In this document: positions 245 through 5,400 of the stretch, in pieces | How positions within the stretch are numbered: the stretch's first letter is position 1 | How the letters are laid out: every line of letters starts with the position of its first letter | Source of the DNA: Perkinsus olseni | Taxonomy: Eukaryota | Assembly: GCA_013115125.1 (NCBI GenBank) | Contig: JABANN010000089.1 | Coordinates: forward strand, 56,371-76,370 | DNA: 20,000 nucleotides | Direction: 5' to 3' | Translations under genes and position numbers: made by a program | Notes under the pieces: model-generated | What the model was told of the DNA's origin: nothing | The model's database searches: none | What the model saw: the letters and a program-made list of their open reading frames with translations, nothing else

Positions 245-340
245 NNNNNNNNNNNNNNNNNNNNNNNNNNNNNNNNNNNNNNNNNNNNNNNNNNNNNNNN
301 NNNNNNNNNNNNNNNNNNNNNNNNNNNNNNNNNNNNNNNN
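245..340. other. Assembly gap (96 N)
   Basis: Run of n characters. Confidence 1.
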
Positions 341-463: not shown

Positions 464-674
464 GGATGTTGCCGGTATGGTTTGTCTCGCAGCTAATGGC
501 CACATAGTAGCTACTGCAAGTCTAGGAATATATCGGCACAGCATTAGGAGCGCAGAGGCACTCAACTAACGCATTTTGTCTCGGATGAAATCGTTGGCGA
601 CTATACACCACGTGAAGATGCTCGCATAGACGATTACACATGAGTAGTTAGAGGCTACTCATGTACTCATCCAA
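464..674 (-). ncRNA. snR30/U17: snR30/U17 box H/ACA snoRNA, copy B, downstream of RPLP0
   Basis: It has m1 AUAUUCCUA (531-523), m2 AAACCAU (483-477) and an ACA box (469-467) 3 nt from the predicted end. The H box is AGACAA (581-576) and the 5' hairpin is closed by UUGGAUGA/UCAUCCGA. Length is ~211 nt and it is colinear with copy A. Confidence 0.9.
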
Positions 675-943
675 GATACATTGCCATTTCGGTGCGTTAC
701 AATCACCGGTACCCCACAAGAAGAGGCACAAGCGCGAACACGCAACAGTAGCTGTTTGCACACGAACAGGTCGACAACACTATGGAAGAAGAGCAGTCGA
801 GGGAGAGTGTGCAGAGCCTAGCCCACTGGCAACGCAACAGCTATCGGATAACCCTTATCAAGGCGCAGAAAGCAACCCCTTGGCAACCACACGAAACCGA
901 TTCGGCAAGTGGGAGTTTCAACAGGTCATCCACAGAGTGCACC

Positions 944-2196
944 TTAATCGAAGAGATCGAAGTCCATCTCCTCCTCTTCCTCTTCCTCCTCCTCGGCGGG
1001 AGCGGCGGCAGCCTCAGCCTTGGCCTCACCAGCAGCAGCGCCGGCAGCGGGGGCAGCAGAGGCGAACTTGGAAGGATCCTTGAGGAATTCCTGAAAAGAA
1101 ATCAGTCACAGCGATTATACCAAGCGACAGTTTATCTCAATAAAAAATTATTGCCAATATGGTTTTTCTCTCAGCTAATGGCCACGTAGTAGCTACTGAA
1201 CGACTAGGAATATATCGGCACAGCATTAGGAGGGCCAAGGCACTCGACTAACGCATTTTGTGTCGGAGAGGACCGTTGGCGACTATACACCACTGGAAGG
1301 TGCTCGCATAGACAGTTACTGCGAGCATGGTTAGAGGCCACACCGCAATCCCTCCGATCGACGAATAAGCAAAAATCCACCCGTGTTACCTTAAGCTCCT
1401 CAACCTCAGGGAAGGTGAAGTCGATATCGGCGCACAAGGCAGCGATGTTCTTGAAGGCGTTGTTGATGGCATAGGGCAAGGTAGCCTCGTTGGGAATACC
1501 AGCCTCACGAGAGAAGGCAGCCAAGTAGGTGACACCGTGCATGAACTTAGCAACGAGATCATCATCACTGATATCCAAAGCAGCGGCGTCGTAGACCTCG
1601 CCGTTGTCATAGATAGCCTCAAGCTCAACACCGTACTCGAAGGGACGGATGTCCAACTTCATGAGAAGAGCCTGCTGAGAGGCAGTGACCTTCTCGCCCT
1701 TGGTGACAAGAGCGACATCGTTGGAGATTTCGATGGAACCCTTGACAATCTTGGTGGCGATGTTCAAGGCCTGGAAGAAGTTGGTCTGAGAGGGGTCCAA
1801 AGGAGTAGGACCAGCGGGGATGTTGACATCACACTGAGCGACCATACCGGCCTTGGCCATAGCGGGAACCTTATGCTCAGAGATGAGCTCACGGATCTCA
1901 TCAATAGGGGCCATGCAGAAGATGAATCCAATGTTACCCTTGACAACGCTCAAGAGACGGGAGAGATCGACGTCGAGCTCCTCCTCATACTGCCTGAGGG
2001 CGGTACGGAGCATGGTGTTCTTGCCCATAACGATGACGGCCTTGCCGCGGAGAGCAATACGGATCTGCTGCAACTGGTTGGATCCGACATGGTCGACGGA
2101 GGCGATGAGGATCTTCTCACAGTTGGCGACGAGGTCCTTGACCCTATCGAGGTAGGCGGTCTTCTTAGCAAGCTTCTGGGGATCGCGAGGTGCCAT
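944..2196 (-). CDS. RPLP0: 60S acidic ribosomal protein P0 (uL10); exons 2196-1390 and 1090-944
   Basis: The ORF has the P0 motifs VGSNQLQQIRIALRGKAVIVMGKNTMLR, KGNIGFIF and GPTPLDPSQTNFFQALNIATKIVKGSIEI. A GT donor at 1389 and a TTTTCAG acceptor at 1091 join in frame to EFLKDPSKFASAAPAAGAAAGEAKAEAAAAPAEEEEEEEEEMDFDLFD*, the canonical acidic P-protein C-terminus. Confidence 0.97.
1146..1357 (-). ncRNA. snR30/U17: snR30/U17 (SNORA73-like) box H/ACA snoRNA, copy A, inside the RPLP0 intron (1091-1389)
   Basis: The minus strand has the family-diagnostic m1 AUAUUCCUA (1213-1205) and m2 AAACCAU (1165-1159) on opposite sides of a 3' hairpin closed by GCCGAUAU/AUAUUGGC. An H box ACACAA (1263-1258) follows a 5' hairpin closed by UCGGAG/CUCCGA. 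The terminal box is AUA (1151-1149). Length is ~212 nt. Confidence 0.88.
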
Positions 2197-2427
2197 GATG
2201 TGTGGGGACTGCGAGCTAACGGCTCTACAATCAGTTTAACCACTGAGGGGGTGTGGTGAGTTGCCACAGGACCGCGCATGGAGGAAATCGATCACCTGAT
2301 CGATTATCGCACACAGCGAGGCTGAGCAGCAGCGCATCTTCTCCGCACCGTAGAGAGCCCCTGAGCAACGTGAAAGTCCGTGCTTTACTCAACGAAAGAA
2401 GTAAGCAGGTACTTTGTAAGTCTCATA
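2197..2427. promoter_or_regulatory. Short divergent intergenic region between RPLP0 (-) and the RSP2-like gene (+)
   Basis: The start codons at 2196 (-) and 2428 (+) are head-to-head, 231 bp apart. No specific motif was identified. Confidence 0.4.
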
Positions 2428-5400
2428 ATGAGTGAGTTTGAGGCATACGCTGCGGCAACAATCTCTCCAATGCTGAGCCGAGCGCTTGCCGATCTCTATC
2501 AGCAGCGCGGTGACTCGGTTGAGCCCGTGGAATATCGTACTGACTGGCTCAAACTCTGGGCAGCTGCACAGGGTAGTGTAGGGGGTGGTCATCGGGTGCA
2601 CCACCTTCGTGTTCAACCTTTGCGTGCCTTCAGTCGCCGAGCGTAGTCGAGGGGAGAAGGCTCGAAAGCAATCGGAATACACAGAGAAAGTTAAGGCCGA
2701 TGTAACGCCGCTTGGCTCTTTTGGAACAGTCACAGCTTCATTATGGTGAATCAGTTTCGTGAGAAACAAGCAAAACATGCGGAGGAGGAAGAAAGAGCCT
2801 CGAGGCCATTTAAGATGCTTAACGAAGTCGTACGAACAGTTGCCGAGGTCGACTATCCCAAAGGTGATGCGTCATGGTGTTCTTTTGTCGGGCATGACAG
2901 ACCTCTTTGCGCCACTGGTGGGTATTCGCATAGATGGTATCTAGGTTTCAGGCTAGCTGTTGAAACGCAGATGCATAATCGGTGGCGATTCTCGTCTTGC
3001 TGTAAAGATGTGAAGTGGTCGTAAACGACGCGTTATGCCGCTGGGCGGACATGAAACTACTGTTAAATGAGAATGACCTCACGCGCTCGGGACACGCCTT
3101 GTCATTTCCCGGAACATCTTGTAGACGTGGAACGTTTAAGTTGGCAGTCGGAAGCGAGCAATACTTGTTAGATTGTAAATACTGCCAGCGTTTCCCGAGC
3201 CCAGCCGTGTGGCAAGAGCTGACGGACACTGTACGAGGGGCCGTTGCAGGATGCAGCGGATGCTACGTTGGAGAGGTTGTCACCGATGGGGAAGGAAGCA
3301 AGCATTTACGGTAGGCCACCGCTCGATACTGCGATAGCCGTGCGAGTCCGGTGTCTGACTCACCCGGCTATAAGGTATATTGCAAATTCTGGCGTCGCCC
3401 CTGGGAAGGCTAGGTTGGAGGAAGGTGAAGGAGTCGTATGGAAAGAAGTAGGGTTATGGAACATCTCCTTGTAGAGTACGGTCATGTAGGTGTTCGAGCA
3501 ACAAGAGGAGGAAGAGGGGGAAGGGGAATCGTCTAAGTCGAGGCAACTGTGAGTTGTCCTATGCGTCCAGTGGTCACGTCTAGTCTTGCAAGCTGCAACC
3601 TCATTAGCCTACTAGAGTGCGGCTTGAATTTTCACGGGCCTTGCCCTCGATGCGGTCTCCCTAATGGTCCATCGCCACAGCGAGGATTCCGCTAGCTGGG
3701 TGTAGAGAGGCCTGCTCAGGTATCTTCCGAACGTCATGGACGTGGCTGAAGTGAAGTACTTTGACTACACCAAGCCCGGTTCCTTTCTAGCTATACCGAT
3801 ATGGTAGAGCAGCCCCGTGGCGAGAGCCCTCGGGCGAACGATGCCCTCGTTCTCATCAGCTACTCCAGCGTTCTGAACAAGGAAGGTCTGGAAGCTACCG
3901 TTGCGGACATGAAGGAACGCCAAGCACAGTTTGTGGAGGAGATGGCTGCGTGAGTGGCCGTGGATGAATGCTGGTGGGGGAGGCCTGCCTTAGGTATGGA
4001 GAGGCCAAGACTCAGTACGATCAGGCAGTGGCCGAGCTACAGGAGGGCGATGAGGTGACCTCCATTATACGGCATGCGTTCTTTACGAATATGCGTGGCT
4101 CGGTTCACTGAGGCATGTGAGATATGGCTCCTTCATAGGCCCCCGAAGAGCCGGTCGAGCCGGTAATTAGGGATCTTAACTCACTTGAAGGAGTAACTAG
4201 GCAGCTGGTTTTGTGCGTCGATACCCTTGGGGGAGAGGGTGGATTGTTAGAGATCTGCCAACAACACAGGGACAAGGTAATAGATGGCAGTGGCTGCGAA
4301 ATGGTCGTGGAGTCGATTGATGCAGTTGGATGAGCTCTGCCGTCACCTTGGGGAGGCCATGGCTGACACAGAACTACAAGCCGTCAGAGAACAGGCGGAG
4401 TATAGTGTAAGCGTGGCGTGTGCGAAGGGGATTGCAGATCGCCGTGTTAGACATCGGAAGCTGGTGAGGGCAATCGTACGGCCCTAATGGCTAAGTACAC
4501 GGAGGCCACTACCGGAGAGGCACTACAGAGGATGGAGAAGCAAGTAGCTGAGGATATCGAGGCACTCGGGGAAGGTTCGTGGTGATGCTTCCGCGATGGG
4601 AGTGGACATCATTGTCTTAGATGTGAGTGATGATAATAAGGAAGTCATCCGTCTAACACGTAAACTTAATACACTGCGGTAGCCTGCTGAGGGTCCACAA
4701 TTGAGCGGTAGTCAGGGTAGCTGGTGTAGGTCTGCGTTGGAGGGTTCTGTGAAGACGGAACTACTGGTTGATTTGAGCTCTCGAAAGTTGCCAGAGGAAG
4801 CGTTGGCGACACTCATGAAGGTTTCCCTTGCTGACATCACTCCTGTTTGGAGTAGCATCTCCTAGGTGGTGCTCCTCTTCCTTACTGAGCACGATCCGTC
4901 TTCCTTTGCTGAAGACACCCCGGTCCAGTGGTCTCAGCTGGTGACTGCCTTTCACTCTGAAGAGGTTTGGAATAAGGTAGGTAGGGTGCTTACGATTGCC
5001 TTCAGCGTGGTGGTGGGCAGATGATGGCTGCGGATTTGAGACGCCCCAGGCCGGGTGTCCCAGCTGGGCACACCTTAGCGATGGCGAAGGCTCTGATTGA
5101 GGAGGCAACTCAAACAGGAGGGTTGAAGGGCGAGGGTAGGCTGTTAATGGGAGGTGGTGACCGGACTGTGTATGGTCTCTTAGATGGTAGTGATGAGGAA
5201 GGGGTGGCTCAGGAGCATCCAGTGGATATCATCCTGCTGGGGTTATTGGAGGCAGCAGTGCAGCTAAGAGAGAAGGTGATGGCGATGCTACGGAGTGCTC
5301 CGGGAGGTTGCCACTCCTCCGCTCCGCCTACCTTGAGTAAATTCCTTCTCGTATGGTACTCATGCTGCTCTAGGATGTATATGTGCGGTGGATGGACTGT

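Follow-up and report, generated by a model that had tools for sequence, protein, structure and literature searches.

A probable U17/snR30 small nucleolar RNA downstream of the RPLP0 gene of Perkinsus olseni and its diverged paralogue within the RPLP0 intron

U17/snR30, known in Rfam as SNORA73, is a box H/ACA small nucleolar RNA (snoRNA) that does not guide pseudouridylation. A sequence-only reading of 20,000 nt of Perkinsus olseni DNA (assembly GCA_013115125.1, contig JABANN010000089.1, positions 56,371 to 76,370 of the forward strand; this whole stretch is referred to here as the window, and all positions are counted from its first nucleotide) had proposed two diverged paralogues of this RNA on the minus strand, one inside and one just downstream of RPLP0, the gene for ribosomal protein P0. 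The locus therefore raises the question of whether it encodes genuine U17/snR30 and, if so, which of the two copies would supply the RNA. In our assessment the elements at 464-674 (copy A) and 1146-1357 (copy B) are very probably the P. olseni orthologue genes of U17/snR30, with copy A as the main source and copy B at best a minor contributor, the latter because of its AUA box and its far lower accumulation. The motifs of the family, their position and spacing, and its fold are found in both copies, whereas the scores of both lie under the Rfam gathering threshold.

Alignment established that the two copies are colinear and, across 212 columns, differ by 43 substitutions and a single indel (80% identity), in line with what the sequence-only reading had described at these positions. 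The differences occupy 27 of the 95 columns of the 5′ domain (72% identity) and, from the H box as far as the 3′ end, 17 of 117 columns; the longest exact stretch common to both copies is 29 nt, and similarity ends at both predicted element ends, beyond which the flanks are unalignable. Both copies contain exact m1 (AUAUUCCUA) and m2 (AAACCAU) motifs, an H box of the ANANNA type located, as required of an H/ACA RNA, in the hinge between the 5′ domain and the 3′ part, and a terminal box exactly 7 nt past m2, and they thus agree with the family in their motifs, in the position of these motifs and in the spacing between m2 and the box. The duplicated set of m1, m2, H box and 3′ box had been noted previously, but without mention that copies A and B differ in their terminal box, which reads ACA in the former and AUA in the latter. 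In both copies m1 and m2 each lie 2 nt from a 5-bp basal stem, and ACA 467-469 and AUA 1149-1151 come straight after this stem, the 3′ ends given here being predicted ones that were considered with contigs only. A search pattern consisting of m1, a gap of 30-50 nt, GAN, m2, 7 nt and AYA matched the 20-kb window exactly twice (467-531 and 1149-1213), as compared to a mean of 0.00 over 200 shuffles. These features correspond to published descriptions of the family, in which the m1/m2 element is placed invariantly 7 nt upstream of the ACA box, a spacing that is functionally important, m1/m2 pair with rm1, whose core in yeast is GGAAU, and rm2 in expansion segment 6 (ES6) of 18S rRNA and a distal 3′-hairpin element is essential (as described in PMC2664660), in which m1 and m2 are near-invariant across eukaryotes and an internal hairpin occurs (as described in PMC7601244), and in which AUA is an accepted variant of the ACA box (as stated in PMC7991803 and PMC6984369). 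Since its motifs are canonical and rm1/rm2 are reported to be conserved, pairing of m1/m2 with 18S ES6 would be predicted for P. olseni.

The default Rfam scan of the window, which applies the gathering threshold, returned no matches. With an E-value threshold, SNORA73 (RF00045) was the best match to either copy and extended from end to end, at 53 bits (E 1.4e-11) for copy A and 35.9 bits (E 8e-07) for copy B; the Rfam model named in advance as a check on the proposal thus recognizes both copies, at scores that lie below its gathering score.

Each copy, when folded alone, forms an outer 5′ stem around two hairpins, and a hinge then leads to a small internal hairpin, to a 3′ hairpin and to a tail; in the minimum free energy (MFE) folds (z of -4.9 for copy A and -3.8 for copy B) the 3′ hairpin of both copies has a large internal loop. 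The inner 5′ stem of copy B is the weaker of the two, with 3 G-U among 7 pairs, and its own MFE gives a different fold of the 5′ domain. RNAalifold analysis of the A/B alignment, likewise put forward beforehand, yielded 61 pairs with 7 double-compensatory changes, 6 one-sided changes and none broken; pairing is 100% as compared to 33-47% when partners are slid by 1-3 columns (0-1 double changes), and 4 of 500 shuffles reached the observed pairing values. The stem differences that had been singled out are real, both in the outer stem (UUGGAUGA/UCAUCCGA versus UCGGAGGG/CCUCUCCGA) and in the upper 3′ stem, where a G-C pair is swapped for U-A. As the consensus structure was chosen from both sequences, the MFE structure of copy A was also projected onto copy B: 20 of its 70 pairs are changed, of which 14 stay canonical (7 by double change) and 6 break, whereas random placement broke 20.2 pairs on average and as few as 6 in none of 20,000 simulations. 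The reverse projection, of the structure of B onto A, broke 9 pairs as compared to 18.3 expected (P about 0.001). Copy B keeps every defining motif, with its stems preserved by compensatory changes, and the pattern of divergence between the copies supports selection on structure, short of proof with two sequences. Rfam, motifs, folds and covariation together uphold the original proposal of U17/snR30 paralogues with structure-preserving divergence.

Relatives of the two copies were sought in metagenome contigs, where a lineage-specific (Perkinsus-like) pattern found no match and the general motif pattern was found at 119 loci at least. A covariance model of the 117-nt 3′ part built from copies A and B (model R1) matched 21 of the loci listed at E of 0.01 or below, and because only these 21 match, most of the pattern loci are chance matches or too diverged. 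Rfam analysis of 18 of the 21 loci gave 10 SNORA73 matches in 8 loci at 27-74.6 bits, a range that makes the P. olseni scores typical of non-vertebrate U17s; just one of the ten reaches 74 bits, and the gathering cut-off therefore looks tuned to animals. In an alignment of 26 distinct sequences, copies A and B included, 88.5% of cells pair, as compared to 39-48% when slid, and 26 of 28 pairs change on both sides, a number reached by none of 500 shuffles. Two upper stems are common to the 26 sequences and covary (85.7% and 89.2% paired), and the shapes of the distal 3′ hairpin and of the internal hairpin are shared with the environmental U17s. The terminal box is ACA in 20 rows and AUA in two (copy B and environmental locus L067), while the other four rows are without a box or do not reach it.

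Within the internal hairpin a motif, UUGAG...CUCC, is present in 12 of the 26 distinct rows (copy A and 11 environmental ones); copy B has UCGAG for UUGAG, and the motif is absent from the animal-like, high-scoring rows (L076 and L052). A six-sequence MAFFT/RNAalifold alignment of A and B with loci L034 and L063 was discarded, as the 5′ domains were misaligned and it was uninformative for that domain. Two U17 copies per locus are common among the environmental loci: L034 and L063 carry head-to-tail pairs about 205 nt apart, in L076 two U17s (2340-2580 and 3403-3642) lie upstream of a Ribosomal_S26e exon (1339-1662), all on the minus strand, and in L052 two U17s (724-951 and 1421-1681) lie either side of a Helicase_C exon (972-1238), all on the plus strand. 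These neighbouring exons emerged from a Pfam scan of 93 of the 176 open reading frames (ORFs) of 8 loci, chosen by hand and mostly about 56 aa or longer, which identified S26e in L076, Helicase_C and MATH in L052, Syja_N in L071, and UCH with zinc fingers in L019, and gave no match in the chosen ORFs of L034, L063, L001 and L016. A tblastn search with both RPLP0 exons found no match among the environmental loci listed, at least 119 in number, and the association with P0 is therefore known from this window only.

The identity of the host gene as RPLP0, with an intron at 1091-1389, was borne out by Pfam (L10, RL10P_insert and 60s acidic domains), by the exon boundaries and by a best database match to P. 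olseni P0 (317 aa, 99% identity), followed by the P. marinus (90%) and P. chesapeaki (89%) proteins. Splicing of the intron, on which the proposal of an intronic snoRNA hinged, is evident from junctions removing 1091-1389 in contigs of two runs, X1 (depth 5,022) and X14 (a 970-nt contig, depth 158.8). Copy B occupies 212 of the 299 nt of this sole intron on the sense strand of its host, with 32 nt separating it from the 5′ splice site and 55 nt from the 3′ splice site. Copy A lies outside introns, 270 nt past the stop codon and about 180 nt past the 3′ end of the mRNA at about 854.

The contigs of X1 and X14 were compared with positions 340-2300 in 30 bins, to which two raw-read runs, X21 and X23, contributed 0 reads; X14 is labelled as a metatranscriptome, and adaptor read-through in X1 suggests short inserts. 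X1 covers 29 of the 30 bins, the empty one being 2254-2300 upstream of RPLP0, and since it contains the spliced RPLP0 junction and has zero depth at 2254-2300 it behaves as RNA. In this run the depth of copy A exceeds that of the RPLP0 exons by a factor of about 10-40, and the depth of copy B is about 1-5% of that of copy A. A contig specific to copy B, at 1222-1349 and with 0 differences, has a depth of 7,387, about 4 times that of the intron flanks (approximately 1,800). Further contigs bridge the 5′ border of copy A (644-807, depth 743) and its 3′ border into the next snoRNA (387-499, depth 294), and the continuous low coverage from about 854 to copy A is consistent with read-through from RPLP0 and also with a separate promoter. 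The sequence-only reading had taken both copies to be functional and the locus to co-produce a large-subunit protein and a small-subunit processing RNA. The former is borne out in part: copy A is very abundant in X1, whereas copy B has an AUA box, a weaker 5′ stem and a depth of 1-5%. The latter is evident for the intronic copy B only, while for copy A it is suggested by low continuous coverage past the poly(A) site.

Contig 387-499 differs from the window at 417, 457, 460 and 462, and three of these four differences fall in the 8-nt spacer between U17 and the adjoining box C/D RNA, a distribution that constraint on the RNA bodies alone would produce. A separate peak of X1 depth (111,792, about 4-13 times the exon-1 bins) was observed in the RPLP0 3′ untranslated region (UTR) at 868-933, where library 3′ bias or a stable fragment is possible and no snoRNA boxes were seen by eye.

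Copy A is followed by further small-RNA features on the same strand (Table 1). The box C/D RNA at 370-455 begins 8 nt past the predicted end of copy A, and in Rfam it matches SNORD31 (E 0.15) and snoU31b (E 1), both under gathering; its C box and guide closely resemble snoU31b matches in environmental loci L028, L021 and L010. Beyond it the start of another C/D-like unit is cut by an assembly gap, past which the 3′ end of a third U17 was recognized. The gap is flanked by a 74-nt repeat, 171-244 being 100% identical to 443-516, which spans the final 53 nt of U17 together with the spacer, GCUGUA of the terminal stem and the C box, and the third U17 site is either a real third unit or an assembly mis-join at the gap. 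The C/D-like unit at 94-183 shares the spacer and C box with 443-463, after which its body differs. The cluster around copy A and the partial third U17, like the known ribosomal-protein hosts of U17 discussed below, were absent from the sequence-only reading. Among the environmental loci, the U17 3′ domain was found near SNOR75 in L010, L021, L005, L018 and L050, near snoU31b in L010, L021 and L028, and near Z103 in L010, all of these matches being slightly under gathering; clusters of the L010, L021 and L028 type indicate that the U31-U17 neighbourhood also exists outside Perkinsus, in the opposite order.

Table 1. Features of the RPLP0-U17/snR30 locus in the window and depth of X1 contigs across it.
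Feature	Position	Strand	Basis or content	X1 word depth
Probable U17/snR30 copy A, major expressed copy	464-674	minus	Rfam SNORA73, fold, motif pattern, X1 depth	
Copy A, H box	576-581	minus	AGACAA	
Copy A, m1	523-531	minus		
Copy A, m2	477-483	minus		
Copy A, terminal box	467-469	minus	ACA	
Copy A, predicted 3′ end	464	minus		
Copy A, bins	spanning 472-669			149,308 / 609,327 / 306,475
Copy A, flanks				818 and 1,218
Probable U17/snR30 copy B, intronic in RPLP0	1146-1357	minus	Rfam SNORA73, fold, copy-specific X1 contig	
Copy B, H box	1258-1263	minus	ACACAA	
Copy B, m1	1205-1213	minus		
Copy B, m2	1159-1165	minus		
Copy B, terminal box	1149-1151	minus	AUA	
Copy B, bin	1264-1329			7,387
Copy B, bin	1198-1263			31,771 (may include pieces fitting both copies)
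Copy B, bin of 3′ part	1132-1197			1,758
Intron flank bin				1,826
RPLP0 exon 1, 269 codons	1390-2196	minus	P. olseni P0 match 264/268 residues, Pfam	
RPLP0 exon-1 bins	1396-2253			8,213-28,434
RPLP0 intron, 299 nt, GT..AG	1091-1389	minus	spliced joint in X1 and X14 contigs	
RPLP0 exon 2 and stop codon	944-1090	minus	P. olseni P0 match 48/48 residues, Pfam	
RPLP0 3′ UTR	854-943	minus	X14 contig ends at 854; X1 loose end with adaptor at 854	
U31/SNORD31-type box C/D snoRNA	370-455	minus	terminal stem GCUGUA/UACAGC (6 bp), C box 443-449, D box 376-379	
Start of further C/D-like unit, cut by assembly gap	341-352	minus	C box UGAUGA 343-348, read directly	
Assembly gap, 96 N	245-340			
Third U17, 3′ end (upper 3′ stem, m2, ACA), remainder lost in gap	192-244	minus	R1 38.1 bits, E 3.1e-06	
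C/D-like unit past third U17	94-183	minus	D box 99-102; no Rfam match	

Taken as a route to mature RNA, copy A would head a packed cluster in the order U17, U31-type C/D RNA, C/D unit, gap, U17 and C/D-like unit, and the RNAs of this cluster would probably be cut and trimmed from a longer precursor, which could arise by read-through from RPLP0 or be transcribed from the cluster separately. Exonucleolytic trimming of the spliced RPLP0 intron may free copy B, a route described for vertebrate U17 (PMC7601244). By analogy with the family, H/ACA core proteins would join the RNA to form a small nucleolar ribonucleoprotein (snoRNP), and its m1/m2 would pair with rm1/rm2 of 18S ES6 and so promote the early cleavages on the 18S pathway. 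We infer both the snoRNP assembly and the 18S pairing, and likewise where exactly the RNA ends lie, how the RNA is processed and what function, if any, copy B has.

Several points weigh against the assignment or its parts. Copies A (53 bits) and B (35.9 bits) remain under the SNORA73 gathering score of 74 bits; the covariation between them is based on two sequences only, and the 26-row alignment was fitted to the model structure with weak rows included (E up to 1). The contigs reveal neither size nor strand nor ends of an RNA, word depth reflects RNA level poorly, and the label of X1 as RNA is a guess. The depth of the 3′ bin of copy B (1,758) equals the intron background and lends no support to accumulation of full-length B, and X14 holds spliced RPLP0 mRNA but nothing over either U17 copy.

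That both elements are H/ACA RNAs of the ordinary kind, which guide pseudouridylation, or else repeats without function, U17-like by chance, agrees with their position under the gathering threshold, but is extremely improbable in view of exact 9-nt and 7-nt motifs that occur twice at the right loop positions with an invariant 7-nt spacing, of SNORA73 E-values of 1e-11 and 8e-07, of the distal 3′ and internal hairpins common to environmental U17s and of the great abundance of copy A in X1. A more serious possibility concerns copy B, which might be a decaying, non-functional duplicate in the RPLP0 intron, leaving copy A, and perhaps the third copy, to make working U17. Its AUA in place of ACA, its lower Rfam score (35.9 versus 53 bits), the inner 5′ stem with 3 G-U of 7 pairs, the different 5′ domain fold of its own MFE and a depth of about 1-5% of that of A, no higher than the intron flanks in the 3′ bin, could all be read in this way. 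Yet the motifs and spacings of copy B are all intact, and all 13 changed pairs of the shared A/B structure still pair, 7 of them through double-compensatory change, an outcome that neutral decay would not readily produce. The AUA box is an accepted variant (PMC7991803, PMC6984369) that also occurs in environmental U17 L067, and the contig specific to copy B exceeds the intron flanks about 4-fold in depth. On this balance we consider simple decay of copy B rather unlikely.

The nature of the transcription unit is a closer matter. Copy A and the C/D cluster could form an independent unit with its own promoter, for which the adjacency of RPLP0 would be irrelevant to expression; a strong promoter separate from that of RPLP0, or a greatly differing stability, would account for a depth of copy A some 10-40 times that of the RPLP0 exons and some 200-800 times that of the linker at 670-801, and no RPLP0 was found beside any environmental locus among the at least 119 listed. 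Set against this are the unbroken X1 coverage from the poly(A) site to copy A (contig 644-807, depth 743; 29 of 30 bins) with nothing upstream of RPLP0, the location of the cluster on the same strand as RPLP0 only about 180 nt past the mRNA end, and the fact that stable snoRNPs normally far exceed their precursors, and the chances of such an independent unit appear to us close to even, leaning slightly against it. It is doubtful, by comparison, that the RPLP0 locus is a one-promoter composite unit yielding P0 mRNA, a minor intronic AUA-box U17 and, through read-through, the main U17 and C/D guides. Were it so, the choice between 3′-end cleavage and read-through would determine how much of a large-subunit protein is made relative to a small-subunit processing RNA, and the paralogues with ACA and AUA could be forms that differ in their regulation.

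The P. olseni copies resemble vertebrate U17/E1 (SNORA73, RF00045) in length (211-212 nt as compared to 203-222 nt in Table 1 of PMC7601244), in an outer 5′ stem that encloses two hairpins, in the small internal hairpin, in identical m1/m2 with m2 7 nt before the box and, for copy B, in being intron-encoded, as vertebrate U17 is described there. They differ from it in an unrelated 5′ domain sequence, in scores of 53 and 35.9 bits below the cut-off of 74, in the UUGAG...CUCC motif of the internal hairpin (copy A) and in the host gene. In Xenopus, U17 is encoded in six introns of the gene for ribosomal protein S8, and Fugu U17 in the S7 gene (as described in PMC7601244), and these arrangements share with Perkinsus several diverged U17 copies that are tied to one ribosomal-protein gene and released from introns. 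In Perkinsus, by contrast, the host encodes the large-subunit stalk protein P0, only one copy is intronic, and the abundant copy belongs to a cluster of mixed H/ACA and C/D RNAs beyond the poly(A) site. Yeast snR30 is unlike the P. olseni RNA in its length of 606 nt, its very long 5′ hairpin and its independent, capped gene. Tetrahymena thermophila U17, the only alveolate U17 in Table 1 of the 2020 review (PMC7601244), shares the invariant m2, whereas its m1 ends in G (AUAUUCCUG) and its length is about 240 nt, the Perkinsus m1 being canonical. The environmental clusters (L010, L021, L005, L018 and L028) are comparable in that U17 lies in a polycistronic-looking cluster near a U31-type C/D RNA; there U31 is about 370-390 nt upstream of U17, whereas in Perkinsus it is 8 nt downstream.

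The carriage of U17 copies by genes of the translation machinery is an established theme, of which RPLP0 of Perkinsus is a further example, and the theme is seen again in the S26e-bearing locus L076 and in the helicase-bearing locus L052. By title or abstract, no publication on Perkinsus U17 or on an RPLP0-hosted U17 was found among those listed, nor any on a myzozoan U17 among those listed for Perkinsus snoRNAs and Plasmodium snR30. The P. olseni genes change no open question. They add a U17/snR30 from a myzozoan alveolate, and at least five small-RNA genes are annotated here that a protein-centred annotation of this shellfish parasite would miss; the UUGAG...CUCC motif and the distal 3′-hairpin shape, common to many non-animal U17s, could in turn improve the Rfam model of the family.

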